Source: Betaproteobacteria bacterium (GTDB lineage: Bacteria; Pseudomonadota; Gammaproteobacteria; Burkholderiales; CAIKXV01). From it: a stretch of DNA of 56,984 bases. The translations under genes were made by a program, and so were the position numbers. The stretch covers positions 1-56,984 of the forward strand of contig CANHBC010000002.1 in assembly GCA_947458835.1 (NCBI GenBank), read 5' to 3'. Below, piece by piece: positions 16,717 through 36,594 of this stretch (within the stretch, counting starts at the first letter, position 1; every line of letters starts with the position of its first letter). Under the pieces are notes generated by a model that saw only the letters and a program-made list of their open reading frames with translations, had not been told where the DNA came from and searched no databases.

Positions 16717-17697
16717 TCACAGCGTGCCCACGGCGCTCACGCGCAGCACCGTACCGCCGGGCAGCGTGGTGACGATCGCGGCGGTGAACGGCGGGACCTG
16801 CTGCGTGGCATCGGTGTTCTGAGGGTTGCGCACGAGGTTGCTGCAGTTGTCGTACTGCATCACCTGGCCATAGAGATCCGTAACATCGGCCACGGACAGG
16901 CCAAGGATCGACGCGGGACCGGTTCCGGATGCGATCAGCGGCGAGGGCGCGCCACACGCGGAAAGCGGCATCGAGCCTCCGAGGTCCCAGCGCTCGGCCG
17001 GCGTGCCACCGCTGGCGAAGTAGTTGATGGAGGCATCGCGGCTTGGATCGGCCTGCGCGCGCGTCTGGAAGTAGGTCTGGTAGGCGGCAGCGACGACCTG
17101 CATACGCGCGAGCGTCTGGCGCAGCAGGTCCGCCGCCAGGTTGAAGCCATCGACCAGCACGCCCTCGTCGTCGCCGCAGAGCGTGAGTTCTCCGGCGTCC
17201 GACAGTCCGGTGGCGCAGTTGCCAGCGGTGTCGAGGCGGCCATTCGCGCCTGGCGCGACGATCGCCACGATCCGGTAGAAGGTGTCGACACCACCGATCG
17301 TACGCATCAGGCGCGGCGTCATCAGCAGGCACATCGGCGCGGCAAAGCCATCGCGAAAGGCGGTGGAAGCCGACTGCGACAGGTAACGGGCAAGCGGCGC
17401 CAGCGTGGCCGGTCCGCTGCCGCAACGCCCGGTCGCACCGTCGGGCCTGACCGGGTCGATCGTCCCGCCGGGCAGCACGAACCGCGCACCGGCTTCACCG
17501 TCGACCAGCACCGGGTTGTCCCGGTAGGCCGCGAGGAAGGCCTGTCGTACCTCGGCGAGCTGGCGCCGGTTGTCGAGGCCGCCCTGGAAGGCGAGCATGG
17601 GCCCGAGGATGTCGAGCACGAACAGCACCAGCGGGATCATCACCGCGAGCACGATGGCCATTTCGGTGAGGGTGAAGCCTCGCGCGCGGCGTCTCAT
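16717..17697 (-). CDS. large prepilin-type protein (PilV-like minor pilin / possible tip adhesin)
   Basis: Class III signal peptide MRRRARG|FTLTEMAIVLAVM with Gly-1, Phe+1 and Glu+5. 326 aa. ATGA overlap with the pilT-like gene. Confidence 0.8.
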   Translation of the reverse strand: MRRRARGFTLTEMAIVLAVMIPLVLFVLDILGPMLAFQGGLDNRRQLAEVRQAFLAAYRDNPVLVDGEAGARFVLPGGTIDPVRPDGATGRCGSGPATLAPLARYLSQSASTAFRDGFAAPMCLLMTPRLMRTIGGVDTFYRIVAIVAPGANGRLDTAGNCATGLSDAGELTLCGDDEGVLVDGFNLAADLLRQTLARMQVVAAAYQTYFQTRAQADPSRDASINYFASGGTPAERWDLGGSMPLSACGAPSPLIASGTGPASILGLSVADVTDLYGQVMQYDNCSNLVRNPQNTDATQQVPPFTAAIVTTLPGGTVLRVSAVGTL

Positions 17698-18842
17698 GCA
17701 CCGGGCCCTCCGAGCCCGGACTGCATCAGCCAGGCGAACTCCTCCGCCGGATGCGCCACGTAGCGGGCATCCTCCTCCGCGATCTCGCCGCGTCGCACAC
17801 GATCGGCAAGCTGGGCGGTCATCTGGACATGGCCGTCCCGCCGACCCTGCGCCATGATGCCGCGCAACTGTCCGGTAGTCCCCTGCACGATCTGCTGGCG
17901 TACGGCAGGCGTGCTCACCATCAGTTCGCAGACCAGTGTCTGCGTGGCATCGTCCCGACGGCGTACCAGCGCCTGCGACAGCACGGCGATCAGGACATTG
18001 GCGAACACGCTGCGTGCCCAGGGCATCTCGTCCGGGGCGAAAAGGGACAGGACGCGTTCGACGGCCTCGGATGCATTCGGCGTGTGCAAAGTGGCAAGCA
18101 CGAGGTGACCGGTCTCGGCCGCAGAGAGCGCAGCATGCATCGTGGATCGATCTCGAATCTCGCCGATCACGATCACGTCCGGATCCTGGCGCATCGCCGC
18201 CCGTACCGCCCCGGCGAAATCAGACGCATCGACACCGACCTCGCGCGCACTGATATGGCCGATCGGCCGTCCGCCCCCGGGACAGTCCATCCGGTCGATC
18301 CGGTACTCGATCGGATCCTCGATGGTAAGCACGTGCAGCGCACGACTGCAGACCAGGCGCCGGACCAGCGCTGCCAGCGTGCTGCTCTTGCCGCTGCCGG
18401 TCGGCCCGGTTACCAGCAGCAGCCCGCGCGAGCGATCGACCAGCCGCCGCAGCAGGACTGGCAGCCCCAGCGTATCGAGGTCCGGCAGGGAGTCCCTGAG
18501 CCTGCGCAGCGAGACGCCCAGGTTTCCGCCGGTGCGCAGGTGCAGGTTTCCGCGCAGTCGGTACAGGCCCAACGTGGCCGAGAAGTCCATTGCCCCGCCG
18601 TCGCGCAGCCGCAGCGTCCGCCGGAGCGCCTCGGCGCTCGTGCCCGCAGAACCTTCGAACGGAACGAGGTTGCGCAGCAGTTCGAACAGCGCCGCCTCCT
18701 CCACCGCTGCTCCGTCGGCGACCGATAGCAGGCCACCGCAACGCTGCCGGACCGGCTCGCCAACCGCGAGGTGCAGGTCGGTCAGATCGTCCCTGGCGGA
18801 CAGCAGTCGCACCACCATCGACTCCAGCATGGAGATGGCCAT
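17694..18842 (-). CDS. pilT: PilT-family retraction ATPase
   Basis: Walker A LLLVTGPTGSGKSSTL, LTIEDPIEY, Walker B DVIVIGEIRD, AAETGHLVLATLHT and STPAVRQQIVQG (AIRNLIRE-like). Start moved to the ATG at 18842. Confidence 0.9.
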   Translation of the reverse strand: MAISMLESMVVRLLSARDDLTDLHLAVGEPVRQRCGGLLSVADGAAVEEAALFELLRNLVPFEGSAGTSAEALRRTLRLRDGGAMDFSATLGLYRLRGNLHLRTGGNLGVSLRRLRDSLPDLDTLGLPVLLRRLVDRSRGLLLVTGPTGSGKSSTLAALVRRLVCSRALHVLTIEDPIEYRIDRMDCPGGGRPIGHISAREVGVDASDFAGAVRAAMRQDPDVIVIGEIRDRSTMHAALSAAETGHLVLATLHTPNASEAVERVLSLFAPDEMPWARSVFANVLIAVLSQALVRRRDDATQTLVCELMVSTPAVRQQIVQGTTGQLRGIMAQGRRDGHVQMTAQLADRVRRGEIAEEDARYVAHPAEEFAWLMQSGLGGPGA

Positions 18843-19651: not shown

Positions 19652-19660
19652 GGTGCTGCC

Positions 19661-20248
19661 TCAGCCCTGTGCGCTGTGGAACAGCATGTCGAAGGTCCCG
19701 GTAGTCGCCGCGCCTGAACCAGGCGCGCCGCGGCAGCGAAACCGGTCGAACCCGACCGTCGTATCGTTGCTGCCGTTGCACTCCTGCAGGAGTTCCAGGA
19801 TCTGTGCGTTGGGCACGCCGGTCGAGCGCGTGAAATAGCGCTGGCCGATGCCGCCGGTCTCCCGCTGGATCGACACCACCACGCCGGACATGATGCTGTT
19901 GACCAGCGCATTTCCGTCGGTGTTGTAGTCGGTCGGCTGCATGTAGGGCTGCTTCCAGTTGCCTGCAGGGACATCGACGCCGCAGAAGGTATTCGCAGCC
20001 TGGTTCGCCGCGTTGTCGAACAAACCGCGTACCTGGCGCGGGATGCAGTTGGTGTTCGCGTTCATGCGCAGCGCCGCTTCGCCGACGGTCCGCTGGAACG
20101 CGAGCAGCGCGGCGTTTCGGCTCTGTCCTCCGACGCCGAAGAAATAGCCCACGCCCACCGCCAATACCAGCAGCACTGCCACCACGATGCCCAGTTCGAC
20201 CAGCGTGAAACCGCCGGAACGACGCTTGATTCCGATCTCTCTGCCCAC
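19661..20248 (-). CDS. type IV major pilin (prepilin)
   Basis: GTG start at 20248 preceded by GGAGGG. 13-aa leader VGREIGIKRRSGG|FTLVELGIVVAVLLVLAVG. The C-terminal Cys pair ECNGSNDTTVGFDRFRC suggests a D-region-like disulfide loop. The rest of the 348-aa track ORF is Arg-rich shadow. Confidence 0.8.
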   Translation of the reverse strand: MGREIGIKRRSGGFTLVELGIVVAVLLVLAVGVGYFFGVGGQSRNAALLAFQRTVGEAALRMNANTNCIPRQVRGLFDNAANQAANTFCGVDVPAGNWKQPYMQPTDYNTDGNALVNSIMSGVVVSIQRETGGIGQRYFTRSTGVPNAQILELLQECNGSNDTTVGFDRFRCRGAPGSGAATTGTFDMLFHSAQG

Positions 20249-20299
20249 GTTGCCCTCCGTCGTGACTGCCTGTGAGTGCGCCCTGCGGCGCGATGGATC

Positions 20300-20317
20300 G
20301 TGATCCGGTCGGATCAC
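20300..20317. repeat. 7-bp inverted repeat GTGATCC-GGTC-GGATCAC overlapping the stop codon of the platform gene, upstream of the pilin gene
   Basis: Read directly from the sequence. Function unknown. Confidence 0.45.
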
Positions 20318-21498
20318 ACGTTGCGCAGGCCGATCGCCATGATCGGACCGTACGAAAGGAAGAAAGCGACCACGATGCCGGCCGCGAGCACCAGCATCGA
20401 GGCAAAGAACAGGACATCCGAGAGCCGTGCGGACAGTCCGATCACGTCCTCCTCGAATTCGCGCACCATGCGTTCGAGTTCGTCGGGCACCCGTCCGGAC
20501 TCGTCTGCCGCCGCCACGTCGGTGGCCACCAGCGGCGGGAAGCCGGCGCGCACGACCGCCTCGCGCATGAACACGCCGGTCTCCAGCAAGTGACCGAAAC
20601 GAGCAAACCAGCCACGCGTATCGGAGCGGCGCGCGGCGTCGCGCACAACGATCGCGGCGGTGGCGGGCGGGATCCGCGCACGCAGCAGTTGCGCGAATCC
20701 GTTCCACAGGGCGGCCAGTTCGGCCTTGACCGAGAGCTCCCGTACCAGCGGGAGCGACTCGGCCACTTGGCGGCAGGTCGATGTCCGGGTGAACGCGAAC
20801 AGCAGCACCGGCAGCGTGACGAAGATCGTCCAGGCCAGGGTCAGATGATCGTTGATCGCGCGGGTGAACTCGAAGTAGTTCACCGCGAACGGAGGCATGC
20901 GTGCGCCGGTCTTGGAGAAGAACTCCAGTGTCTTCGGCGCGGCCACGGTGACCACCACGAACAGGAACACATAGAGGAACGCGAAGGTGGCCACCGGGAT
21001 GGCAATCACCCGGGACAGCGAACCGCGCAGGGTGCGCTGCGTACGCACGTCATCGGCGAGTCGCTTCAGCGTCTCAGGCGTGCTGCCGGAGACCTCGGCG
21101 GCCCGCACCAGCATGCTGTCGCGCCTCGGGAAGCCGGCAAATGCCATCGCCGCGTGCAGTTCGGATCCGCCCAGGCACTGCTGCTGCATGGCCAGCGCCG
21201 CCTGCCTGAGCTTAGGATCCCGGAGGATGCCGCGACAGCTCTCCAACGCCTTGGGCGCCGGCGTGCCATTGCCCAGGCGCTGGCCGAATGACCGGTAGAA
21301 GCGCTCCAGGTCGCGAGCGTCGAACCCGCTGGAGATCCAGTTGCGAAGCGTCGCCGACGGATCCAGTCGCAGTCGAGTCGCGCGGACCCGGTTGGTCTTG
21401 AGCCGGGAATACGCGAAATCCCGGCTTTCGGCATAGACGACGCCGTGCACTGGCGCATTACCGGTATCGTATCCGCTGTAGTGGAAGGCGAGAAGCAT
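20314..21498 (-). CDS. GspF/PilC-family inner-membrane platform protein
   Basis: 394 aa with two T2SSF-like repeats and hydrophobic segments (IAIPVATFAFLYVFLFVVVTVAAP, LAWTIFVTLPVLLFAF, VLFFASMLVLAAGIVVAFFL). It follows the assembly ATPase. Confidence 0.8.
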   Translation of the reverse strand: MLLAFHYSGYDTGNAPVHGVVYAESRDFAYSRLKTNRVRATRLRLDPSATLRNWISSGFDARDLERFYRSFGQRLGNGTPAPKALESCRGILRDPKLRQAALAMQQQCLGGSELHAAMAFAGFPRRDSMLVRAAEVSGSTPETLKRLADDVRTQRTLRGSLSRVIAIPVATFAFLYVFLFVVVTVAAPKTLEFFSKTGARMPPFAVNYFEFTRAINDHLTLAWTIFVTLPVLLFAFTRTSTCRQVAESLPLVRELSVKAELAALWNGFAQLLRARIPPATAAIVVRDAARRSDTRGWFARFGHLLETGVFMREAVVRAGFPPLVATDVAAADESGRVPDELERMVREFEEDVIGLSARLSDVLFFASMLVLAAGIVVAFFLSYGPIMAIGLRNV

Positions 21499-21590: not shown

Positions 21591-23606
21591 TCAGGAAGGT
21601 GGGTCAGCTACTCGACGCAGTTCATCGATGGACGTGATGCCCCGCGCGACCAGCCGAAGGCCGCACGCCCAGATCGAACGCCCGGGCGGCACGCCAGCGC
21701 GTGCGATCTCGCGGGCGGTCGCGCCGCGTTCGACCAGGTCGCGCACGTCGCGATCGATATCGAGCAGTTCGTAGATGATCCGGCGGCCGCGAAAGCCGCT
21801 CCATCCGCAGCGGAGGCATCCGACCTGGCGCATCGGGTTCCATTCGAGGTCGGCCACCCACGCCGAGCGACGCCGCTCGGCGTGCGTTTCCTCGCGTGCA
21901 TCGGAGGCGCAGCAGTCAGGGCAGAGTACCTGTACGAGCCGCTGCGCCAGCACACCGCGCAACGACGCCGCGAGGTTCTCGGACGTGACACCGATGTGCC
22001 GCAGCCGGGTGACCGCCAGCGCCGCCTCGGTGACGTGCAGCGTCGTGTAGACCAGGTGCCCGGTGAAGGCCGCGGAGATGACCCGATTGGCCACGTCGAG
22101 ATCTTCCCGGATCTCCCCCATCAGGATCACGTGCGGCGCCATGCGCAACGTGGCGTTAAGCATGATGCGCACGCCCTCGCCCTCGGCCACGTCCGCCGGG
22201 ACCTCCATCTGATGCCACATGGAATGGCGATACTCGATCGGTTTCTCGATGGTCCGGATCGAGCGCTCGATCGGATCGATCTTCTTCATCATGGCGTACA
22301 GCGACGTAGTCTTCCCGGACCCGGTAGGGCCGCAGACGACCACCAGCCCGGTGCTCGAACGGCTGTAATTCAACAGCTGGCGCTCGACCTGCTCGTCGAA
22401 TCCGAGCGCATGGAAATCCGCCTGTTCGGCCTGCCGGTCAAGGACGCGCACGACGGCTTCGCGCTCGGAGTGGCTGCGACCCTGGTTGAGTTGCAGCCGG
22501 AAGCTGTAGCGGTCGGTGATGTCGGCGAATTCATCCTTGAGGCCACCGATGATCCCGACGTTGGCCTCCTGAGGGTTGCGGGCAAGCGCGTCGGCGCTGG
22601 AGTTTTCCGAGACGAGCTTGTTCAGTATCTTGTCGAACAGGTCTTCCTTGATGGCCGCGAAGAGGTGCCCTACGCCGTTCACGTGCAGCTTGACCTTGCC
22701 CACGCCGGCCAGAGTCTTGTGAAGGAAGATGTCGTTCGCGCCGACATAACAGGCATGCCGGATCAGGCGACCGTAGATCCACTCGACCTCGTTGCCGTCC
22801 TGCACATCCGAACCACGCGCCGCGCGCTGGCGCTCCTCCCACTGCAGCACCGCAGCCCGGAAGGCCTCTTCGGTACGGGCGAAATGTCGACGAAAGACGG
22901 TCTCGATCGTGCGCGGGGATGCGATCACCACCTCTACCCGATACGACTGCCAGCGCGTCTGCGCCTCCAGGATCTTCTCGGGTTCGGCGACGGCGACCAC
23001 CAGACGGCCATCGACCCGCCCCGCCGGCACGTACCCGCTGAACTCCCCGACGGAAAGGTCCTCAAGCTCTGATGGATCGATCCGGTCGACATGGTCCTTC
23101 GGGAAGTACTGGCGGCCGTTCTCCTCGGCCAGGGCCTGGGCCATGGTCTCAGCGCTGATCAGCCCGAGGTCGAGCACGACCCGCGTGAGGGACGTTCCAG
23201 TGGCAGCGGCGAACTGGAGCGCGGCGCGGATGTGCGACTCCTTCACCCCGAGTTTGCGCAGCCGGTGGTCCATTCCGACCTGTGCCGTGACCAGTCGTTC
23301 CGACTCGCTCAGCACCACGCCGCTGCACTGCCGCTCGAGGGCAGCGTCGATGTCGGCGCGGCTGCATAGTCCGAGGGTGACCAGCAGGTCGCCCAGCGGT
23401 GCGTGCGACCGCGCCTGCACTTGAAGGGCCTCCTGCAATGCGGCGCGAGTGATTGCGGTGTCGGCCAGCAGCAGCTGGCCGAGGAGCGTCGTTGCCCCGG
23501 AGCTCTCTGGCCGCCGGGCCGCGGCGGTCACGACCGGGTCTGCCCTGCCCGGCTCCGCAACGCCGAGGGTATCGGCCCCACCGAACCATCGCGCGCGGAG
23601 GTCCAT
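21591..23606 (-). CDS. GspE/PilB-family assembly ATPase with N-terminal T2SSE_N (MshEN-like) repeats
   Basis: Walker A VVVCGPTGSGKTTSL, Walker B HVILMGEIRE, His box TTLHV and tetracysteine CPDCC...CLRCG. N-terminal LLGQLLLADTAITRAALQEALQVQ-ARSHA-PLGDLLVTLGLCSRADIDAALERQ. Confidence 0.9.
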   Translation of the reverse strand: MDLRARWFGGADTLGVAEPGRADPVVTAAARRPESSGATTLLGQLLLADTAITRAALQEALQVQARSHAPLGDLLVTLGLCSRADIDAALERQCSGVVLSESERLVTAQVGMDHRLRKLGVKESHIRAALQFAAATGTSLTRVVLDLGLISAETMAQALAEENGRQYFPKDHVDRIDPSELEDLSVGEFSGYVPAGRVDGRLVVAVAEPEKILEAQTRWQSYRVEVVIASPRTIETVFRRHFARTEEAFRAAVLQWEERQRAARGSDVQDGNEVEWIYGRLIRHACYVGANDIFLHKTLAGVGKVKLHVNGVGHLFAAIKEDLFDKILNKLVSENSSADALARNPQEANVGIIGGLKDEFADITDRYSFRLQLNQGRSHSEREAVVRVLDRQAEQADFHALGFDEQVERQLLNYSRSSTGLVVVCGPTGSGKTTSLYAMMKKIDPIERSIRTIEKPIEYRHSMWHQMEVPADVAEGEGVRIMLNATLRMAPHVILMGEIREDLDVANRVISAAFTGHLVYTTLHVTEAALAVTRLRHIGVTSENLAASLRGVLAQRLVQVLCPDCCASDAREETHAERRRSAWVADLEWNPMRQVGCLRCGWSGFRGRRIIYELLDIDRDVRDLVERGATAREIARAGVPPGRSIWACGLRLVARGITSIDELRRVADPPS

Positions 23607-23607
23607 C

Positions 23608-24144
23608 TCAGCCTCCGAAGACAGTGAGAGTGAGCTCGAAGCTTCGCTCCGATGCGACGAAAGCGGTCACCGCAACCGGCAGCGCGCGGAAACTCGAGAC
23701 GAAGTCGCGCAGGCCCTGGTAGTTCAGGTAGGCGCCCTTGATCCGCACGCTGACCGCGCGCAGTTGCCCACCGGAATAGGGCACCGGACGTGCCATTTCG
23801 GCGAGCGGCGTCACTCGGGTCACGCCCGACCCGGTGGTAACGGCGAGCGATTCGATGCTGATCGCGTCGCTGACGCGCCGCTCCATGGCGGCCGACACAG
23901 TCTCGGCCAGCGCACGCTCGAGCAGCTTGCCAGCGTGCGGATCCGTTTGCCGTGCGCTGGCGATGTCGCGCACCCGCGCAGAGAGTGCCTCGAGCGAGGT
24001 ACGTTCCGACTCGAGGCTTACTGCCTGCGCCTGGGCCGAAACGACTTTCGGCTGTTGCCCGCGGGCCGCGAGGGCGCTAGCGAGGCAGCATGCCAGCAAG
24101 AGCGGAATCAGGATGGTCGCAACGGACGATGAGCGAGATCTCAT
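23608..24144 (-). CDS. small pilus/T2SS assembly protein (GspM/PilO(IVa)- or PilP-like), possible lipoprotein
   Basis: Signal/anchor MRSRSSSVATILIPLLLACC, a coiled-coil and a C-terminal ferredoxin-like segment VRIKGAYLNYQGLRDFVSSFRALPVAVTAFVASERSFELTLTVFG. The ATPase start lies 1 nt after its stop. Confidence 0.5.
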   Translation of the reverse strand: MRSRSSSVATILIPLLLACCLASALAARGQQPKVVSAQAQAVSLESERTSLEALSARVRDIASARQTDPHAGKLLERALAETVSAAMERRVSDAISIESLAVTTGSGVTRVTPLAEMARPVPYSGGQLRAVSVRIKGAYLNYQGLRDFVSSFRALPVAVTAFVASERSFELTLTVFGG

Positions 24145-25312
24145 TCAAGGCTCCTGGGGCATTCAGGCCACTTCGCACGCAACCGACCGGCGGAGCGATG
24201 GACAGCGCCGACGCGACCTGCGAGCGGTCAGTGGCCGCGTTCACGCTGGGGCGGTTCTGGAAGGTCATGCGCGGCCGGGTGAAAGGCACGGTGATCGTGT
24301 ATTCCGCGACCCGGCCGCGGGCTTCGAGCGAGACCCGGGCGCCGGACCGCCACAGTTCCGCCGCGCGGTCGAGCAGCGCGACCGGATCCAGACTCAACTC
24401 CTGTGCGAGCGCACTCGGCCGGTCCCGCATCAGGGCTCCGAGCTCGAGTTGCAACCGTTCGATGTCCTGGCGGGCGTGGCGGGCGACCGACTCGGCCTCG
24501 CGGATGCGCAAGGTCGTATCGAACAGGTTTGCCGCTGCGCCGAGTGCGAGCACCGCGCTAACCGCAAGCATCCCGTGGCGGATGTGGCGCAGCGCGATCC
24601 CCGCCCACTCTGGCTCGGCCGGATAGGACTCGACTTCCGCAGCTGCGACCAGAACGTCGGCCGCATTGAACAGGATCCAGGGCGCGTCCTCGGGCAGTTT
24701 CTGCTCGTAAAGCACCAGCCTGGCAATATCGCGTACCGGCTCGTCCGTGACGCTGCAGACCACGGCCGGCTGCAGCATCGGATCGGGGATCACCACGCCG
24801 ATGACCAGGCGCTCCCGTGCCAGACGGGTGGGCGATGCCTCATCGGCGCGCGGGCAGAGATCGATCAACACGGCGAACGGTCGCCCGCTGCGTGCGGCCG
24901 GCGACTGGCCCGCGTGGTGCAGGAGCCGATCCACCAGCATCAGCCCGGGCGCCACCGCGGTGATCCGTGGCTGGGCGGACCGGGCTTCGTCATTGGCAGC
25001 CGGCTGGAAGGGTTCGTCCCCGGAAAGCGAGTCTAGGTAACCCACCGGGGCTGCGTAGATCACGCCATCCCGCTTCGACCGGTTCACCACGCGCACACGG
25101 TCGAGCGACAGCCCTTCCCGCACCACGAACGACTTGGCCGCCTCGGTAGAACGCGGGCTGCTGGCCAATCGACGCTCCTCCGGATGGAAGGCGATCACCC
25201 GCACCGACTCGCCACGAGGCAGAGGGCCGGCACCGTCCACGTTTACCTGCCAGTGGGCAAGGGTCCGGCTAGTGAGGAAGGTGGTCAGGCAGACCGACTC
25301 TGCGCTTGCCAT
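24077..25312 (-). CDS. bitopic pilus assembly protein (R64 PilO-type / GspL-like)
   Basis: About 260 aa cytoplasmic region, one TM (GMLAVSAVLALGAAANLF), then a periplasmic coiled-coil plus domain. ATG at 25312, 4 nt after the secretin stop. Position matches pilO in pilL-N-O-P-Q-R-S clusters. Confidence 0.55.
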   Translation of the reverse strand: MASAESVCLTTFLTSRTLAHWQVNVDGAGPLPRGESVRVIAFHPEERRLASSPRSTEAAKSFVVREGLSLDRVRVVNRSKRDGVIYAAPVGYLDSLSGDEPFQPAANDEARSAQPRITAVAPGLMLVDRLLHHAGQSPAARSGRPFAVLIDLCPRADEASPTRLARERLVIGVVIPDPMLQPAVVCSVTDEPVRDIARLVLYEQKLPEDAPWILFNAADVLVAAAEVESYPAEPEWAGIALRHIRHGMLAVSAVLALGAAANLFDTTLRIREAESVARHARQDIERLQLELGALMRDRPSALAQELSLDPVALLDRAAELWRSGARVSLEARGRVAEYTITVPFTRPRMTFQNRPSVNAATDRSQVASALSIAPPVGCVRSGLNAPGALNEISLIVRCDHPDSALAGMLPR

Positions 25313-25316
25313 GGGC

Positions 25317-26948
25317 TCAGAGCGCCTCGGAGAACAACGCGTCGTAGGCCCCGCCGGGGATGACCGTCGCGCGCAGCAGCAGCACCACCTCGCGCGCGAC
25401 GGTACGCTGGTTTCGCCTGCTGAGGATGTCACCGGCCACCGGGGTGTCGACGAGCCCCGGTACGCCGGCGCGGGTCTCGTCGCCGACCGAACTGCGTATG
25501 CCGCCGAAGATCAATGTATTGCCGGATCGTGCAACCACCTGCATCAGCGACTGGTTCGTCCGCTGGACCGGTGCGGTGACCCGCGAACCTGCGCCGATCT
25601 CGAAGGTCTGGAACTCCTGCACGCGGTTGAGCACTGGAACGATCGTGAGCTGTACCTCGGTGTCGGACAGGATGTCCGGTTGCAGCGAGAGCGTCACGCC
25701 GTCGACCGCAAAGGCCGCTGCAGCGCTGGTCGTCGTGGTGCCACCCGCAGCACCTGCAACGATGGTGGACGCCACGGTCGGCACATACGGAATCTGCTGG
25801 CCATCGAATATCACCGATGGCGTATTGTTCATCGCGAGCACTCTCGGCTGCGAGATGACGCGCACGTTGGTGTACTGCTGCAGGGCGCGCAAGACCACGG
25901 ATATCGACCCGCGCGTCACGTTGGCGCTGGCCGCGGGGCTGAAGCCAGGCACCGAGATCGCACTGGCACCGAGCAGGGAAACCGTTCCGGTGGACGTCCC
26001 CGAAAGCACGCGCGTCCAGTCGATCCCGTAGCGGAACTCGTCGGTCAGCGTGACCTCGACGATCGAAGCTTCGATGTCCACCCTGCGCATCGCTACGGCA
26101 GAGAACCGGTTCAGGAACTGAGACACCCGCCCCAGCGCAGCGCCGTTCGATCGCACCGTGATGAACCCCATCTCCGGCATCACCTGGACCTCTGCGTTCG
26201 CACCGGCGAGGTCGCGCAGGAACTGCGTAAGGCCAGCCGCATCGGTCTGGAAGCGCCCGGTCACCGTGAACTGCGCCAGCACACCCGAACTGGACGGCGA
26301 CGCACCTTGGGCAGTGGCTCCAGATGCTCCGCCGCCAAAACCACTGGCTGCGCCACCGGCGACCGAGGATGCACTGCCACCGCCTTGCACGGTGGGCGAA
26401 CCACCGACCGAGTACTGTGCGGAGAGCCGCTGCATTACGTGCAACGGAAGCCGGAACGTGTAGGACGCGGTATCGGCCACGGTCACTGTACGGCTCGTCC
26501 GGTCGATCACGAGCGCGAAACCCGCCGCAAGCGCCAGGCGGCGCATCGCCGCCTCCGGCGTCAGGTCGCGCAGGTCGACGGTGACCGGGCGGTTAACCTG
26601 CACGCCTTCCATGAACAGCACGCTGTACTGGTGGTCGCGGGCCACGTTGGAGAGCAGCGCACCGAACGACACGCCCGAGGCGGCCACCGAGACATCTCCC
26701 GCCTCGGGCGTGGCGACCACCGCACGCACGCGAATGGGATCCTCCGGTCGCTCCGTCAGAACCTCCCGTGCCTCCGACTGAGGCTCGAGCGCGGCCGCGA
26801 CCATCCGGCGCGATTCGGCCGAGGCTTCGGCCCGGCGCTGCGGAAACGGACTGGCGCAGCCCGCGAGCAGCGAAACGACCGCAAGTGCGGCCAATGCGCG
26901 CATGGGTCCGTTTGTCTTCAGATCATGCATCCGTCGTGGGTAGCTCAT
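25317..26948 (-). CDS. secretin lipoprotein (R64 PilN-type type IVb pilus secretin)
   Basis: Lipobox VVSLLAGC. Secretin C-domain RVISQPRVLAMNNTPSVIFDGQQIPYV...GVPGLVDTPVAGDILSRR...LLLRATV. The start is one of the ATGs at 26948, 26930 or 26903. The track start at 27056 would overlap the upstream gene. Confidence 0.85.
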   Translation of the reverse strand: MSYPRRMHDLKTNGPMRALAALAVVSLLAGCASPFPQRRAEASAESRRMVAAALEPQSEAREVLTERPEDPIRVRAVVATPEAGDVSVAASGVSFGALLSNVARDHQYSVLFMEGVQVNRPVTVDLRDLTPEAAMRRLALAAGFALVIDRTSRTVTVADTASYTFRLPLHVMQRLSAQYSVGGSPTVQGGGSASSVAGGAASGFGGGASGATAQGASPSSSGVLAQFTVTGRFQTDAAGLTQFLRDLAGANAEVQVMPEMGFITVRSNGAALGRVSQFLNRFSAVAMRRVDIEASIVEVTLTDEFRYGIDWTRVLSGTSTGTVSLLGASAISVPGFSPAASANVTRGSISVVLRALQQYTNVRVISQPRVLAMNNTPSVIFDGQQIPYVPTVASTIVAGAAGGTTTTSAAAAFAVDGVTLSLQPDILSDTEVQLTIVPVLNRVQEFQTFEIGAGSRVTAPVQRTNQSLMQVVARSGNTLIFGGIRSSVGDETRAGVPGLVDTPVAGDILSRRNQRTVAREVVLLLRATVIPGGAYDALFSEAL

Positions 26949-26955
26949 GTCCGCC

Positions 26956-28134
26956 TCATCGCGCCTGTTCAACCACCAGCAACCGGCCGCCGTGCATCTC
27001 GCCGCGCAGCCCCAGCCGCGCAAGCGCACGGCGCAGCACCTCGCGCAGGTCTTCACCGTCCACCTCGGCGAAGGCTTCCACCATGAGCAGGGGCACGGAC
27101 CGGAACTCGACCTCCACTCCGTGCGGCTTCAGGTAATCGCGCAGGGTCGCCTGTACGCTGCGGTTCGGCAGAAATGAAAGGCGCTTGTCCGGCGTCGCGG
27201 CTGCAGCAACGTGCTGCGTCGGTCTATGGACCTTCGATGCCTCAGCCTCAAGACCGACCGCCAGCGGGGTATTGCGCCATGCATCGTCCTGCGCCCTGGC
27301 GCGGTCAGATCCGGGCTCCGCCTGCTCGGTCGGGGCTGGGGATGCGGCATCTGCAATGGCCGCCGGCGGGCAGGGCGCTGTCTCGCGCAGCGCCACCACG
27401 TGTACGACCGGGGCCGCTGGCGGCTGCACCTGCTCGATGATCGATCCGGGTTCGACGCCTGACGCCACGAGCAGTTCCCTGAGGCGTGCCGCGCGAAGGC
27501 GCGTGATCGGTGAGTCGGCGCGAGCCGCCTGGGAGAGGATCGTGACCGTGCTGGCCCCGCGGGCGATCGCCACCATGCGCGCGAGGTAGTCCACGCCACC
27601 AGGCTCGGTCTGCAGCACGCCGGTTCCGAAGGGTATGGTCACACGCTGCGTCCCGGTCGTGGGAGCCACGCAGGTATCCGGGATCGCTGCGCGCCGAACC
27701 GGTCCGACATACTCGATGACCGTCCGGGCACTGCTTTCAGCAGAGGTCACGAGCTCGAATCGGCCAGGCAGACCACGGACGACCAGGTACGGTCTCTGCA
27801 CCTGGAAGGTTCCATTTACCACCCTGAGCGAAGACAGCAACGCCGGATCGGAAGGCTGAAGGAACACATATCGGCCATTGTCGAAAACGATTCCCATGGA
27901 CGGCCCATCCCCGTGTACGCGGTAGGCGAAGTCCAGGGGTGCGGTTCGCATGCCGATTTCGGTAGCACTCTCGACCGGTACTGCAGCGCCCCCTGCGCCT
28001 GCATGAACCGCACAGGCACGTCCCGACAGCGCGAGCGCAGCGGCGAGGAGGCCGGCGGCGATGACGACGCCCCCACGCCCAGGCGCTATGAACGACCTCG
28101 ATACCGAACATGGAATCTCAATCATTTTGATCAT
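26956..28134 (-). CDS. multidomain periplasmic protein: VirB9-C-like domain + OmpA-like domain + TcpQ/PilL (STN-like) C-terminal domain
   Basis: Signal peptide. aa 66-140, LDFAYRVHGDGPSMGIVFDNGRYVFLQ...YLVVRGLPGRFELV, parallels the VirB9-like C-terminus in this operon (LNFDYRISGRAPFRPVQVLDDGRFTYLQ...FVVVQRLADRFLLRLG). OmpA-like RVTIPFGTGVLQ...ITRLRAARLRELLVASGVEPGSI. C-terminus ATLRDYLKPHGVEVEF...DLREVLRRALARLGL. Confidence 0.55.
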   Translation of the reverse strand: MIKMIEIPCSVSRSFIAPGRGGVVIAAGLLAAALALSGRACAVHAGAGGAAVPVESATEIGMRTAPLDFAYRVHGDGPSMGIVFDNGRYVFLQPSDPALLSSLRVVNGTFQVQRPYLVVRGLPGRFELVTSAESSARTVIEYVGPVRRAAIPDTCVAPTTGTQRVTIPFGTGVLQTEPGGVDYLARMVAIARGASTVTILSQAARADSPITRLRAARLRELLVASGVEPGSIIEQVQPPAAPVVHVVALRETAPCPPAAIADAASPAPTEQAEPGSDRARAQDDAWRNTPLAVGLEAEASKVHRPTQHVAAAATPDKRLSFLPNRSVQATLRDYLKPHGVEVEFRSVPLLMVEAFAEVDGEDLREVLRRALARLGLRGEMHGGRLLVVEQAR

Positions 28135-28142
28135 TCAGATTA

Positions 28143-29519
28143 TTACTGGGCGAGAATTTTTTCTATCGTGCCAGTCTCGGGCCGAACGATCAAGAAGGTT
28201 CGCTGGACGGTGAGCGAGAACCGGTGGCCTTGCCCGATGAGCAACGTGGGCGAAATGTTTCGCGAACGACCCAGTATGGTGCGCGAGGTTTCGACCAGAA
28301 CCGAACCGGCTGCGGACGAGACAGCCGACCCGCTGGCGCCGCCTGCGCCAGGCACGACGACCACGGTCGGGGGCTGGGATTCCCGCCGTTGTACGAGCGA
28401 AGCGAGCGCCGCGATGACGAAGCTCGAGCCGAACATCGTCCAGAAATGGCGATCCACGCGGTCGTTCAACCCGCTGCGTCCCTGCGCGTCGGTCGCCTGC
28501 GTCCCGAGCAGGTCGAGACTGGCTCCATCGGGCAGGATCAGTCGCCGGAACGCAGCCAGGACACGTTCCTGGCCGGGACGTACGTCGGCGCTGTAATCGC
28601 CGACCAGGCGTGAACCCATTGGAATCAGCAGGTGGGTTCCATGCACCGAGTCCCAGATATCCTGCGTGACCTGAGCCACCAGCGTGCCGGGCAGGTCGCT
28701 GTTGACCTCCGTGAGCAGCACGGCCGGGATCACCGTCCCTTCCAGCACGACAGGTCCGCGCAGCGCCGGACGCAGGGCAACGGGTAGCCCGCCGTCACCG
28801 GCGCCGCGCGTACGTGCCTGCTCCAGCCAGGCAACGTCGGTTCGTCCATCAGCCGGCGGCATTGCGAACGGCACCACAGGCGCCACTGCGGGCGCCGCAT
28901 GCCCGGTAGCCAGACCCGTCTCTCGGATAACGGCCGTGAGCCCGGCTGCCGACGAGGCGATGGCCGCGGAGGCCGAGACGCCCCCGCCTCCGGCGCCGAG
29001 GGCGAGCAGCGGACTGGAGCGCGCTTCGGCGAGGCGTCGCTCCTGCTCCGCTGCCAGCTGTTCCTGGCGGGAGGGTCGTGGGTCATTGCCCGACGGCGAA
29101 CCACGGACAGTGACCACGCCGTCAGGCGCCCTGAAACCCGGAAAGGGCAGCGACTCGGGCAAGGGCGGCCGCGCCGGCGCAGCGGGCAGGGGCGGCAGGG
29201 GGGGCAGGGCAGCAGTCGGCCCGGCCACCCGCGTCTGGTCGTCGATCGTGCGGTCCAGGGCATTGGTCGTCTCCGGCGGACGGACCGATGAGCCAGACGC
29301 AGCGGCCTTAGCGGCACCGGCATTTGCAGCGTTCGACGGTGGCGTGTCGCGCGCCTGCCACGCGAGCATCGGCAGTGCGATGACCAGCAGACCGCCGCCG
29401 ACCCACCAGTGAAGGTCTCTGCGCTGCGCAGGCCTGCGATCCGCCTGCAACGGGTCGGCATCGACCAGCGAGTCGATCCCGAACGCCGTCGTGGTACGCC
29501 CACCGCCTGTGTCACTCAT
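28143..29519 (-). CDS. virB10: VirB10/TrbI-family type IV secretion core protein
   Basis: Cytoplasmic N-terminus, TM WWVGGGLLVIALPMLAW and a Pro-rich linker (PPLPPLPAAPARPPLPESLP). TrbI-like C-domain GTLVAQVTQDIWDSVHGTHLLIPMGSRLVGDY...LNDRVDRHFWTMFGSSFVIA. ATGA overlap with the virB9-like gene. Confidence 0.85.
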   Translation of the reverse strand: MSDTGGGRTTTAFGIDSLVDADPLQADRRPAQRRDLHWWVGGGLLVIALPMLAWQARDTPPSNAANAGAAKAAASGSSVRPPETTNALDRTIDDQTRVAGPTAALPPLPPLPAAPARPPLPESLPFPGFRAPDGVVTVRGSPSGNDPRPSRQEQLAAEQERRLAEARSSPLLALGAGGGGVSASAAIASSAAGLTAVIRETGLATGHAAPAVAPVVPFAMPPADGRTDVAWLEQARTRGAGDGGLPVALRPALRGPVVLEGTVIPAVLLTEVNSDLPGTLVAQVTQDIWDSVHGTHLLIPMGSRLVGDYSADVRPGQERVLAAFRRLILPDGASLDLLGTQATDAQGRSGLNDRVDRHFWTMFGSSFVIAALASLVQRRESQPPTVVVVPGAGGASGSAVSSAAGSVLVETSRTILGRSRNISPTLLIGQGHRFSLTVQRTFLIVRPETGTIEKILAQ

Positions 29520-30373
29520 TGGGACGCCTCTTCAGCTCCCGGACCGATGGCTCGTCCACGACTGTCGACCTCGGCGGGGGGCAACTGCGTCCGCTCCACT
29601 ACCACCTGCGCCCGCCCCAGGCGCAGCAGGAAGCGGTCGGCCAGCCTCTGGACGACCACGAAACGGCCGCGCACCAGGTAGTTGACCCGTTCGCCTTCAC
29701 CGGTCTCGCCGCCCGCGAAGAACGCGGGCAGTTCCTGCAGCCCGACCGGCATCTGCAGGTAGGTGAAGCGCCCGTCGTCGAGCACCTGCACGGGGCGGAA
29801 CGGAGCCCGGCCGCTGATCCGGTAGTCGAAGTTGAGCCGATCGATGCGCGGCACGTCCGTAGCGGGACGCTCGCGCGGCGGCGACACCGCAGGCGGGGGT
29901 GGGGGCGCATCCCGACCCGGTGGCTCGCCGCGCGGCACGATCAGCCCTGGATGAGACCAGCTGACGCGCTGGTACCAGGCGCCCCCTTCCGGCGAACTGC
30001 GCAGCCCAAGCTGGTAGGTGCGCCGGTTCGTCACGAGGGTGCCGCTGGTGTAGAGATCCGCGCGCAGCGGCTTCAGGAAAACGTTCGGACCCTTGTCCTG
30101 CACCAGCCATTGCACGGTATCGCCCAGTGCGAACGCCACGACCGACTCGTCTGGCTCCAGCGCGATGTGCGTGACCGCACCCGGCCGGGTCAGCAGCAGG
30201 TACGACTCGTTCGGGTCGTAGCGGAACACGACCAACCGGGTGTCCTGGGGCATCGCGATGGGTGGCTGCCGGGCGCTTGCAGCCCCGCCGCTTGCCAGCG
30301 TGGCAAGCGGCGCCAGGACCGCTGCGATGCACACCGCTGCGCGGAGCACCGGCGCCACAAGCCAGTGCCTCAA
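29516..30373 (-). CDS. virB9: VirB9/TrbG (CagX-family) type IV secretion core protein
   Basis: Signal peptide. N-domain RLVVFRYDPNESYLLLTRPGAVTHIAL...TNRRTYQLGLR. C-domain NFDYRISGRAPFRPVQVLDDGRFTYLQMP...LPAFFA...RVNYLVRGRFVVVQRLADRFLLRLG. The TTG (or nearby GTG) start overlaps the virB8-like stop. Confidence 0.85.
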   Translation of the reverse strand: MRHWLVAPVLRAAVCIAAVLAPLATLASGGAASARQPPIAMPQDTRLVVFRYDPNESYLLLTRPGAVTHIALEPDESVVAFALGDTVQWLVQDKGPNVFLKPLRADLYTSGTLVTNRRTYQLGLRSSPEGGAWYQRVSWSHPGLIVPRGEPPGRDAPPPPPAVSPPRERPATDVPRIDRLNFDYRISGRAPFRPVQVLDDGRFTYLQMPVGLQELPAFFAGGETGEGERVNYLVRGRFVVVQRLADRFLLRLGRAQVVVERTQLPPAEVDSRGRAIGPGAEEASQ

Positions 30374-31062
30374 GACAGTTCCTCCGCCACGTTGAAGCGG
30401 GTCACATAGAGGCCGATCGGGTTCTGGATGATCTCGGCCTCGGTCTTCGGCGGCACGATCGCGTAGTGCACCGTGACCTGCAACGTCTTCGACTGCACGG
30501 CTGCGCCGAGCGAGCGGGTCTCGGCGCGCACGCGTACCTGCATCACCGTTTCGTCGAGCGGTGCGACCGTGACGATGGCCACCGACCGACTGAGCCCCGG
30601 GTCCTTGCGCAACCGCTCGATGGGCCGGTCAGCCTTCATCCAGTCGAGCATCTGCTGGGTGGCCAGGCCGGAGGTCATCCGGTAGGCCTCTGCGAGCTGG
30701 CGCTCGGTGAGGTAAGGATCCACCGTCAGCAACTGCTGAACCCAGCGCGAGACGAAGTAGGTGCGCTCGGCGCGGCCCGGCCGGTAGCGCTGCGCAGCGG
30801 CCCGGTCGGCGATCGCCAGGCCGTTGTCGGCCACCTTCACCACGTACGGCTCGACGGTCTTGAGCGGCAGCAGCACGACCAGCGCGATGCATGCAGCCAG
30901 CAACGCGAGCGTGGTCAGCACCCACCCGACGAACAGCCGGTTGCGGTCGACCACCGCGCAGCCGTAGCGCTCGAACCACTCGACCCGCGCCCGTTCGTAG
31001 GCATTGAGCGGTGCCGAGGACGCCGGCACGCTGGTGCGCCGGCGCAGGAGGGCCTTCCACAT
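30370..31062 (-). CDS. virB8: VirB8-family type IV secretion protein
   Basis: 230 aa. N-terminal cytoplasmic segment, one TM (FVGWVLTTLALLAACIALVVLLPL) and a periplasmic domain ending ...HYAIVPPKTEAEIIQNPIGLYVTRFNV, which matches the characteristic NPlGl.Vt.y tail. Confidence 0.85.
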   Translation of the reverse strand: MWKALLRRRTSVPASSAPLNAYERARVEWFERYGCAVVDRNRLFVGWVLTTLALLAACIALVVLLPLKTVEPYVVKVADNGLAIADRAAAQRYRPGRAERTYFVSRWVQQLLTVDPYLTERQLAEAYRMTSGLATQQMLDWMKADRPIERLRKDPGLSRSVAIVTVAPLDETVMQVRVRAETRSLGAAVQSKTLQVTVHYAIVPPKTEAEIIQNPIGLYVTRFNVAEELS

Positions 31063-31168: not shown

Positions 31169-32224
31169 TTACTCCGGCTTGATGCCCGCCGCCTTCACCG
31201 TCTTCTGCGCACCAGCCAGGTCAGCCTTCATGCGCGTGCCCAGCGCCTCGGGCGTGCCGCCGAACACCTCGAGCCCGAGCTGCGAGAAGCGCTCGCGGGT
31301 GGACGGCTGCGCGAGGTAGCCGTTCACCACGGTGTTGATCCGGTCGACGATCGGCCGCGGCAGGTTGGCCGGGCCGAGGATACCCAGCCAGATGCTGGTC
31401 TCGAATGCCGGGAACCCGACCTCGACCATGTTCGGCACGTCGGGCAGCAGCGGATGGCGCTTGGGCGAGGTGATCGCCAGCGCGCGCACCTTGCCGGCCT
31501 TGATGTTCTGCGCGGCGGTGGAGAGCTGGTCGAACATGATCGGCACGTGGCCGCCGATCACGTCCATGCCGGCGGCCGGGTTCGACTTGTACGGCACGTG
31601 GTTGAGCTTGATGCCCACCAGCGACGAGAAGTACTCGCCGGCCAGGTGTCCGGTAGAGCCGATGCCCGCGGTCGCCCAGCCGAGCTGGCCGGGCCGTGCC
31701 TTGGCGAAGGCGACCAGTTCCTTCACCGTCTTCACCGGCACCGACGGATGCACCACCAGCACCTGCGGTGCGTTCGAGGTGCCGATCACCGGAGTGAAGT
31801 CGCGGAAGATGTCGTACGGCAGCTTGGTCGTGAGCGCCGGGGCCATCGAGAACGCGCCCGAGGTGAGCAGCAGCGTGTAGCCGTCGGCGGGCTGGCGCGC
31901 GACGAACTCGGCGCCGATCGCGCCGGTCGCACCGGCGCGGACCTCGATCACCACCGGCTGGCCGAAGGCCTCCTGCATGCTCGGCGAGACCAGCCGGGCC
32001 ATGGTGTCGGCCGAGCCGCCGGCGCCGAAGTTGACGACCATGCGGATCGGCTTGGCCGGCCAGGCGGGTTGTGCCAGCGCGCTGCCCGTGGCCGCGAGCA
32101 GGCCGGTGGCAGCCACGGCGGCCGCCAGGGCGGAGGTGGATCGGTGGGCGGTCCGGCCAGGGGTGGCTACGGTGCTTCCAGTGCTGCGTGCTGCCTCGGG
32201 TTTCATGTTCGCCTTCATGGTCAT
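31169..32224 (-). CDS. Bug/TctC-family substrate-binding protein
   Basis: Signal peptide, then WPAKPIRMVVNFGAGGSADTMARLV and a family-typical C-terminus. Confidence 0.85.
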   Translation of the reverse strand: MTMKANMKPEAARSTGSTVATPGRTAHRSTSALAAAVAATGLLAATGSALAQPAWPAKPIRMVVNFGAGGSADTMARLVSPSMQEAFGQPVVIEVRAGATGAIGAEFVARQPADGYTLLLTSGAFSMAPALTTKLPYDIFRDFTPVIGTSNAPQVLVVHPSVPVKTVKELVAFAKARPGQLGWATAGIGSTGHLAGEYFSSLVGIKLNHVPYKSNPAAGMDVIGGHVPIMFDQLSTAAQNIKAGKVRALAITSPKRHPLLPDVPNMVEVGFPAFETSIWLGILGPANLPRPIVDRINTVVNGYLAQPSTRERFSQLGLEVFGGTPEALGTRMKADLAGAQKTVKAAGIKPE

Positions 32225-32237
32225 CCTGTGTTTTGCT

Positions 32238-33209: not shown

Positions 33210-33227
33210 CGGGTCAGGACTCCGCGG

Positions 33228-34217: not shown

Positions 34218-34301
34218 CGGGGAAGCTCCCGGTTGGTTGAAGAAGGCGGAGGGACGGGCGCCGCAGGCCGCGCTGGCCGTCAGCCGGCCGCGGACGCGGG
34301 C

Positions 34302-35456: not shown

Positions 35457-35460
35457 CGGG

Positions 35461-36471: not shown

Positions 36472-36594
36472 GTTCTTTCTCCTCCGCGGCGTTATGCTCG
36501 GCTGTGGTCATATGACGGGTGCAAGCCCTTTATCCTTTTTCCCGCCTGACCAGATTGTAGCTGCGGGAAAACTCTTGAGGCTACGATCGATACG

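Follow-up and report, generated by a model that had tools for sequence, protein, structure and literature searches.

The gene in question lies on the minus strand of a 56,984-nucleotide stretch of DNA from a Betaproteobacteria bacterium (contig CANHBC010000002.1 of assembly GCA_947458835.1), hereafter called the window. It encodes a predicted exported protein of 392 amino acid residues (aa), the target, and stands between a VirB10/TrbI gene of type IV secretion system (T4SS) type and the secretin gene of a type IV pilus cluster. A sequence-only reading of this DNA had proposed a chimeric linker protein with VirB9-like, OmpA-like and TcpQ/PilL-like modules; its open reading frame (ORF) at 26956-28134 (-) was confirmed, as was the equivalence of residues 66-140 with nucleotides (nt) 27715-27939. 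The three-module architecture is real, with the domains ordered as VirB9 C-terminal-domain-like, OmpA-like, linker and TcpQ/N0-like, and the target belongs, as a divergent member, to a multi-domain variant of the TcpQ/BfpG/PilL class of secretin partners. The features of the target gene are as follows, where HMM stands for hidden Markov model, AF2 for AlphaFold2 and dN/dS for the ratio of nonsynonymous to synonymous substitution rates.

26956..28134, minus strand: target gene, 392-aa exported three-domain protein (ORF and translation, homologues, dN/dS of about 0.28-0.34 with orthologous loci).
28000..28134, minus strand: N-terminal signal-peptide-like region, aa 1-45, without lipobox (inspection of the sequence).
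27700..27939, minus strand: VirB9 C-terminal-domain-like beta-sandwich module, aa 66-145 (BLASTP, hhalign, HMM, AF2).
27379..27663, minus strand: OmpA-like alpha/beta module, aa 158-252, between the near-invariant Cys155 and Cys255 (Foldseek, weak Pfam matches).
27196..27369, minus strand: variable Pro/Ala-rich disordered linker, aa 256-313 (alignment, AF2).
26959..27189, minus strand: TcpQ/BfpG-like N0 domain, aa 316-392, the most conserved module (AF2, Foldseek, hhalign).

An alternative automatic gene call for this locus (P0002, 313 aa) begins at M80, a start that would leave out the signal peptide and shorten the VirB9-like module by its first strands. The long 392-aa start was taken as correct because the homologues are conserved from residue 66 onward. 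The N-terminus carries the hydrophobic stretch VVIAAGLLAAALALSG, followed by ACA/VHA, and the N-termini of the homologues are variable and hydrophobic. Since no Cys is conserved there, this region was read as a signal peptide and not as a lipoprotein signal; by inspection it reads as a Sec signal. In the alignment of close homologues, three conserved blocks were identified (aa 66-145, 155-255 and 316-392), with a Pro/Ala-rich segment of varying length between the second and the third. AlphaFold2, run with the homologue alignment, predicted three folded modules with a predicted local distance difference test score (pLDDT) of about 74-89, consisting of an all-beta module (aa 71-142), an alpha/beta module (aa 161-250) and a beta-alpha-beta-beta-alpha-beta-beta module (aa 318-390). 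Residues 1-67 and 254-313 were predicted to be disordered, and the packing between the domains is not confident in the full-length model (predicted template-modelling score, pTM, 0.31).

The C-terminal module is the most conserved part of the target, 35 of 81 positions being invariant. When modelled alone (pLDDT 83.8, pTM 0.71), it adopted the beta-alpha-beta-beta-alpha-beta-beta fold of N0-like domains. Its best Foldseek match in the Protein Data Bank (PDB) was BfpG (9u5s_R, from the BfpB-BfpG secretin complex of the bundle-forming pilus of enteropathogenic Escherichia coli), with E=4.3e-4, a template-modelling score (TM) of 0.74 and a root-mean-square deviation of 2.2 Å, followed by STN domains (anti-sigma factors, FecA), secretin N0 domains and the N0 domain of Xanthomonas citri VirB7. 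By hhalign, the module was aligned with a TcpQ-domain alignment, composed of the R64 PilL C-terminus, stand-alone TcpQ proteins and remote relatives, at 91.2% probability (E=1e-6). Neither the target nor any of the 21 close homologues was matched by the Pfam model TcpQ (PF10671) at E-values up to 10. The comparison with PilL made in the sequence-only reading thus holds for the C-terminal domain but not elsewhere, where R64 PilL is without significant similarity. BfpG, an N0-like protein composed of a signal peptide and one N0-like domain, is homologous to TcpQ, CofC and LngC; 17 copies of it associate with the lipoprotein secretin BfpB in a 17:17 stoichiometry, at BfpB's lipidated N-terminal LG region, disruption of the BfpG-BfpB contact impairs pilus biogenesis, and X. 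citri VirB7 resembles BfpG (PMC12531336).

The N-terminal module was compared with the CagX/VirB9 protein encoded two genes upstream. In this single comparison, BLASTP aligned aa 67-128 of the target with aa 180-250 of VirB9 at 31% identity (E=1e-4), reproducing the motifs that had been matched by eye (LDFAYRV..G..P...VFDNGRYVFLQ in the target, LNFDYRI..G..P...VLDDGRFTYLQ in VirB9) and aligning one further motif pair (YLVVRGLPGRFEL in the target, FVVVQRLADRFLL in VirB9). A profile of the N-module from 14 family members was paired by hhalign with the co-located VirB9 proteins at 94.7% probability (E=5.9e-8), N-module positions 7-70 corresponding to VirB9 positions 179-251. The N-module HMM also matched the VirB9 C-terminal domains at nine further loci (12.6-28 bits), and in the reverse direction a phmmer search with the window VirB9 detected the N-modules of remote family members (E=4e-8 to 1e-4). 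Sub-threshold CagX matches were found in 10 of the 21 close homologues, always at about positions 110-186 of the 198-position CagX model, that is, in its C-terminal domain. The VirB9/TrbG/CagX model (PF03524) itself gave no match to the target, and the best close homologue reached 17.4 bits for a cut-off of 34.2. AlphaFold2 predicted eight strands in this module (pLDDT 74-84). The BLASTP, hhalign and HMM results together place the similarity to VirB9 well beyond chance. As judged by these sequence comparisons, the N-module is homologous to the VirB9 C-terminal domain, at the level of the domain only.

For the middle module, the full-length model was searched against the PDB by Foldseek, and the top matches were OmpA-like peptidoglycan-binding domains (4rha, 6u83, 5u1h and 3td3; probability 1.0, TM normalized to the target structure 0.45-0.57). 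Weak Pfam matches over this region were to Pilus_CpaD in 17 of the 21 close homologues and to OmpA in two of the 21 (E about 0.06); the target itself does not reach the threshold of the OmpA model (PF00691), and the similarity is at the level of the fold. The structural model thus supports an OmpA-like fold. A provisional alignment to approximate sequences of E. coli OmpA and Pal was used to look for the Asp and Arg that bind diaminopimelate in OmpA-like domains. In it, the family shares the Arg of the 'RRA' motif of OmpA; in place of the Asp, most members have D or E and the window protein has Ala, and the 5-residue GxxxYN loop is missing in the whole family. Peptidoglycan binding by this module is uncertain as judged from these residues. 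The linker that follows differs in length and sequence among the homologues (AF2 pLDDT <50 for aa 254-313). Two relatives differ from the target in these regions: P0021 (342 aa) keeps the N- and C-modules, with unrelated sequence where the OmpA-like module would be, and P0019 (496 aa; locus L003, 10001-11491) carries an insertion of about 100 aa in the linker.

The target belongs to a wider uncharacterised family. Close relatives were limited to 21 clusters in a search of 5.8 billion proteins, all of them unnamed or "hypothetical". An exhaustive HMMER search of 1.84 billion representatives with the profile of the close homologues yielded 92 proteins at E<=1e-3, most of them 320-450 aa in length and carrying the N-module at the N-terminal end. 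When 83 of these relatives were scanned with Pfam, CagX was detected in 65, OmpA in 30, TcpQ in 25 and DotD in 23. One of them, WP_011486287.1 from Polaromonas JS666 plasmid 2, is above all three Pfam gathering thresholds (CagX 26-107, OmpA 184-252, TcpQ 343-422), and P0058 is above threshold for CagX (35-118, 51.6 bits) and TcpQ (301-377, 65.7 bits), with a weak OmpA match in between. CagX and TcpQ matches are also kept in P0025, the protein of locus L022. A tblastn search of 72,556 plasmids with the target gave no match, and the plasmid relatives were found only with the remote relative P0058 as the query. Remote relatives are labelled "TcpQ domain-containing protein" in RefSeq, and a Thauera relative carries the NCBI label 'TrbG/VirB9 family P-type conjugative transfer protein'; none of the labels "hypothetical", "TcpQ domain-containing" and "TrbG/VirB9 family" conveys the architecture. 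Literature searches returned no description of the VirB9-C-terminal-domain/OmpA/TcpQ architecture or of composite operons of a T4SS and a type IV pilus.

All three domain calls of the sequence-only reading were therefore correct: the VirB9-like call by BLASTP and hhalign, the OmpA-like call by Foldseek and the TcpQ/N0-like call by Foldseek and hhalign. At the same time, the target is not a VirB9 and, by threshold, is not a member of Pfam TcpQ or OmpA. PDB searches by hmmsearch with full-length, N-domain and C-domain profiles gave only spurious weak matches (augmin, alginate lyase, a cobalamin protein).

That these similarities might arise by chance or from composition, or that the ORF might not be a real gene in high-GC sequence, was considered, since direct scans of the target against Pfam and NCBIfam gave nothing at E<=0.1 and the window, at 67-69% GC, contains many spurious long ORFs. 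This explanation is refuted by the 21 close and 92 representative homologues, the conserved synteny, dN/dS values below 0.5, the three confident AF2 modules and the agreement between independent profile and structure matches, and practically no weight is left to it.

The genes surrounding the target in the window, all on the same strand, are the following.

30370..31062, minus strand: VirB8/TrbF-like gene (Pfam VirB8, E=2.9e-35).
29516..30373, minus strand: VirB9/TrbG (CagX) gene (Pfam CagX, E=3e-56).
28143..29519, minus strand: VirB10/TrbI gene (Pfam TrbI, E=7.6e-53).
25317..26948, minus strand: lipoprotein secretin, 543 aa, BfpB-like in length and layout (Pfam Secretin and weak STN, lipobox).
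24077..25312, minus strand: PilO-position protein, 411 aa (synteny; start inferred).
23608..24144, minus strand: PilP-position protein, 178 aa (synteny).
21591..23606, minus strand: pilus extension ATPase with MshE-type N-terminal cyclic di-GMP (c-di-GMP)-binding motifs (Pfam T2SSE and MshEN).
20314..21498, minus strand: platform protein, T2SSF/PilC-like (Pfam T2SSF, E=6e-22).
19661..20248, minus strand: major pilin candidate, 195 aa, prepilin motif KRRSGG/FTLVELG (translation; size equal to the 195-aa gene called in locus L001).
17694..18842, minus strand: PilT-family (retraction-type) ATPase (NCBIfam pilT_fam, 293 bits for a cut-off of 319; start inferred).
16717..17697, minus strand: large pilin-like protein, 326 aa, with RG/FTLTEM (Pfam N_methyl, E=4e-4).

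The target gene is separated from virB10 by 8 nt, and its stop codon from the secretin gene by 7 nt; the junction position claimed for it thus holds, with the TrbI/VirB10 gene upstream and the secretin gene downstream. The window VirB9 is below the NCBIfam cut-offs for VirB9 and TrbG. The real start of the secretin is at 26948 (MSYPRR...), with the lipobox LLAGC, and in a phmmer search against the PDB its longest match was BfpB (9u5s_A, 535 aa) over secretin aa 193-518 (E 5e-11), PilQ being matched in the secretin core only. Neither the PilO- nor the PilP-position protein matched a Pfam or NCBIfam model, and phmmer detected no resemblance of either to R64 PilO2 or PilP; both are conserved along with the cluster, also in L021 and L022, the loci without VirB genes. 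The extension ATPase matched the NCBIfam c-di-GMP_motif model at 66 bits (cut-off 38) in two stretches. The pilus of the window is, as judged from its ATPases, probably c-di-GMP-controlled and retractile. Two candidates were rejected in this region. The 355-aa ORF at 19350-20417 (-) is an Arg-rich off-frame artefact of high-GC sequence, the real pilin gene being that at 19661-20248, and the pilus module is not simply of the R64-type T4b class, as PAP_PilO/PilP matches are absent and the ATPase is MshE-like with a separate PilT. No other T4SS genes were found among the larger ORFs of the window, in which the flanking genes are metabolic or housekeeping genes (TctC, acyl-CoA dehydrogenase, ADH, Kup, glutamine-synthetase-like). 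Since the window contains no stand-alone TcpQ gene, the target's own N0 domain is the sole candidate for a BfpG equivalent serving this secretin.

Selection was estimated as dN/dS by the NG86 method between the window and nine orthologous loci; synonymous distances (dS) ranged from about 0.4 to 1.5, and the ratios are rough because dS is close to saturation. The values were 0.04-0.24 for VirB8 (0.04-0.09 in the six closest loci), about 0.20-0.29 for VirB9, 0.21-0.28 for VirB10, 0.28-0.45 for the target, about 0.07-0.19 for the secretin, about 0.08-0.35 for the ATPase and about 0.07-0.15 for PilC. All compared genes of the operon are intact and constrained, the target being the fastest-evolving overall, and VirB8, VirB9 and VirB10 have been retained under purifying selection in the lineage of the window. 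VirB8 is conserved far more strongly than VirB9 and VirB10, with 74-94% identity to the orthologous loci of metagenome-assembled genomes (MAGs) (90-94% in the six closest) and dS of 0.42-0.65 as against about 0.9-1.4 in the neighbouring genes.

At every locus examined, the target-family gene was located immediately upstream of the secretin gene, or of one or more small TcpQ genes followed by the secretin gene; in L025 a 110-aa gene of no known family also lies between the target-family gene and the secretin gene. The contexts form a graded series, consisting of a full T4SS with a pilus (L025 and the plasmids), VirB8-10 with a pilus (the window) and a pilus alone with the three-domain protein (L021 and L022).

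The full T4SS context is a composite operon carried by three Comamonadaceae megaplasmids and best annotated on the Hydrogenophaga and Polaromonas plasmids. By plasmid typing, those of Rhodoferax T118 and Polaromonas JS666 are conjugative (MOBH/MPF_T) and Hydrogenophaga pBPS33-1 is non-mobilizable. Its gene order is VirB11-like, VirB2, VirB3, VirB4, an unknown gene, VirB6 and an AAA ATPase, followed by VirB8, VirB9, VirB10 and the tri-domain protein, and then by a small TcpQ, PilN, PilO2, PilP, PilQ, PilR, PilS, an ATPase, PilM, an ATPase and PilV. Between the tri-domain gene and the secretin gene, these plasmid operons have one or two genes for stand-alone TcpQ proteins. The metagenomic loci L006, L007 and L023 have the same layout. 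L025 carries a full VirB2-B10 set and the tri-domain gene together with a pilus module orthologous to that of the window (secretin 37%, MshE-type ATPase 41%, PilC 34% and PilT 39% identity).

Several further observations were made on the composite operons. In those with an R64-type pilus, the large ATPase of the AAA family, about 645-690 aa in size, is encoded upstream of virB8, either next to it or separated from it by no more than three small genes (L006 492-2510; L007 4743-6734; L018 10698-12764; L019 7627-9651; L020 7900-9834; L023 4055-6061); neither the window family nor L025 has it. The small TcpQ gene and pilN of Polaromonas JS666 plasmid 2 are separated by an inserted gene for an IscB RNA-guided endonuclease (L020 15979-16917). 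In L006, a 214-aa 'TcpQ' protein (6769-7413) shows by eye an OmpA-like motif (VVGRGDVHYTPGLALSRASAIRERLIAHGADVETI) before its TcpQ domain; if this motif is real, the protein would be a two-domain relative without the VirB9-like module.

The VirB8-10-plus-pilus context was found in the window and in about 12 MAG loci of freshwater Betaproteobacteria/Burkholderiales (L001-L004, L008-L016), where just VirB8, VirB9 and VirB10 precede the gene. TctC genes are conserved upstream of virB8 in this family, and an acyl-CoA dehydrogenase gene is added in the window, L001 and L003/L004; the block of TctC-family receptor and acyl-CoA dehydrogenase genes occupies 31169-37466 (-) in the window, 1561-6857 in L001 and 1-5149 in L003, and at least the adjacent TctC gene is conserved in most of the other loci. 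This conserved flank points to a stable location on the chromosome rather than to the recent insertion of a mobile element. In the pilus-alone context, the tri-domain gene is the first gene of an orthologous pilus cluster (secretin 55-57% and ATPase 50% identity), and no VirB gene was found within 2.7-10 kb upstream of it. Because L021 and L022 keep the VirB9-like module without VirB8-10 upstream, the constant partner of the family is the secretin and pilus and not the VirB proteins, and the core role of the protein should be with the secretin. From these gene contexts taken together, we infer that the family arose in operons fusing a P-type (MPF_T) conjugative T4SS with a type IV pilus, as a gene between virB10 and the (TcpQ-)secretin genes.

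On balance, we consider it fairly probable that the target is primarily a secretin partner, with coupling of the secretin to VirB8-9-10 as a secondary possibility confined to the window. As a predicted Sec-exported, non-lipidated periplasmic protein, it would dock through its C-terminal N0-like domain on the N-terminal tether of the adjacent lipoprotein secretin, by analogy with BfpG on BfpB, and would form a ring around the secretin. The OmpA-like domain would then be located at the peptidoglycan layer, and the VirB9-like domain may provide a second protein-protein interface. At loci with VirB9 and VirB10, such as the window, this interface could contact the outer-membrane core formed by these two proteins.

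Several observations weigh against this assignment. The missing direct Pfam and NCBIfam matches mean that all domain assignments come from profile, structure or transitive evidence, and the best 50 PDB matches of the full-length model were all to the OmpA-like domain. The absence of the GxxxYN loop and the Ala at the Asp position make peptidoglycan binding doubtful in the window protein. The stand-alone TcpQ proteins of the composite operons might be the real BfpG equivalents there, and the structural matches of the C-module include the N0 domain of X. citri VirB7, a T4SS core component (6gyb_A, 3ov5 and 2l4w; TM 0.53-0.58).

The VirB7 matches could be taken to mean that the protein is an extra subunit of the T4SS outer-membrane core, either a VirB9 paralogue or a VirB7-like N0 ring protein, acting with VirB9/VirB10 only, its proximity to the pilus genes being incidental. 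The NCBI name of the Thauera relative would agree with such a role, as would the matches of 23 relatives to DotD, a core lipoprotein of the type IVB secretion system (T4BSS), and the position of the gene directly after virB10 in the window family, L006-L007, L023-L024 and the plasmid loci (L018-L020), an SLT-like gene lying between in L025. The best structural match is, however, BfpG and not VirB7 (TM 0.74 as against 0.53-0.58), the gene is retained in the pilus clusters of L021 and L022, and no other TcpQ-like gene precedes the lipoprotein secretin of the window. A role restricted to the T4SS core is accordingly improbable.

A stronger form of coupling, in which the target physically connects the VirB8-9-10 envelope scaffold to the pilus secretin so as to form one hybrid machine, is suggested by the position of its gene at the junction of a tightly packed operon (gaps of at most 8 nt) and by the presence of VirB9-C-terminal-domain-type and secretin-partner-type domains in one protein. 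It also draws on the retention of VirB8-10, without VirB2/3/4/6/11 nearby, under purifying selection at about 12 MAG loci; further VirB genes may be present elsewhere in these genomes. In X. citri, the N0 domain of VirB7 binds the VirB9 C-terminal domain non-covalently, a precedent for pairing the two. Since the protein occurs in L021 and L022 together with the orthologous pilus genes and with no VirB8-10 upstream, such coupling is not the general function of the family, and even for the window we regard it as rather unlikely. The adaptor role proposed in the sequence-only reading is a plausible possibility in the window and not a general function. The corresponding evolutionary proposal can be put forward only tentatively, and with more doubt than belief. 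It holds that in this lineage of uncultured freshwater Betaproteobacteria a stripped-down VirB8-VirB9-VirB10 scaffold, with neither VirB2/3/4/6/11 nor a coupling protein nearby, has been kept under purifying selection and built into a retractile, c-di-GMP-responsive type IV pilus encoded on the chromosome, in which the three-domain protein would covalently tie the VirB9/VirB10 core to the lipoprotein secretin, giving a true hybrid of T4SS and type IV pilus.

The family extends what is seen in known N0 partners, which are simpler: here the N0 domain is fused to VirB9-derived and OmpA-like domains. The family also marks a class of operons that encode a conjugative T4SS and a type IV pilus as one unit. 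If the fusion reflects physical contact, the conjugation channel and the mating pilus would be mechanically linked; to our knowledge, the two have so far been treated as separate machines. This can be tested in cultured plasmid carriers (Polaromonas JS666, Rhodoferax ferrireducens T118 and Hydrogenophaga). The graded series of loci illustrates how, in the domestication of a pilus, a conjugation system can keep some of its parts and lose others.

Among known proteins, the nearest in architecture are those of the Comamonadaceae megaplasmids, WP_011486287.1 (Polaromonas JS666), WP_011458801.1 (Rhodoferax ferrireducens T118) and WP_159597363.1 (Hydrogenophaga BPS33). They are of a similar size class (375-567 aa) and, like the target, are encoded directly after virB10 and before pilus secretin genes, WP_011486287.1 having the same domain order (CagX C-terminal domain, OmpA, TcpQ). 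Their identity to the target is very low, and the link is made via profiles. Besides the full VirB2-B11 set, the megaplasmid operons encode a coupling protein, a thin pilus of R64 type (PilN/O2/P/Q/R/S/M/V) and an additional stand-alone TcpQ. The window, by contrast, has VirB8-10 only and lacks a stand-alone TcpQ gene, and its pilus module is of another kind, with an MshE-type ATPase and PilT.

BfpG and TcpQ are small single-domain proteins of about 130-150 aa. The group of BfpG, TcpQ, CofC and LngC resembles the C-terminal domain of the target in fold, and its members, like the target as predicted, are periplasmic non-lipoproteins; the location of the target gene directly upstream of a BfpB-like lipoprotein secretin gene also matches the BfpG/TcpQ-type setting. 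Beyond the signal peptide and single N0-like domain known from BfpG, the target has VirB9-like and OmpA-like domains and a long linker. R64 PilL is of similar length (355 aa), is encoded upstream of the secretin gene pilN and carries a C-terminal TcpQ domain (aa 264-350, E=1.3e-15). It differs from the target in being a lipoprotein (LLSGC) and in having pilM between pilL and pilN; its N-terminal two-thirds gave no CagX or OmpA match, and BLASTP between the target and R64 PilL detected no significant similarity (best E=0.09).

The N-module of the target is homologous to the C-terminal beta-sandwich of VirB9/TrbG/CagX proteins; the target lacks the VirB9 N-terminal domain, and a bona fide VirB9 is encoded separately two genes upstream. 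In X. citri, VirB7 likewise shows an association of an N0 domain with a VirB9-type C-terminal domain, the former being bound to the latter. There, unlike in the target, the two domains reside on separate polypeptides, VirB7 is lipidated, and the structural match is weaker than that of BfpG.

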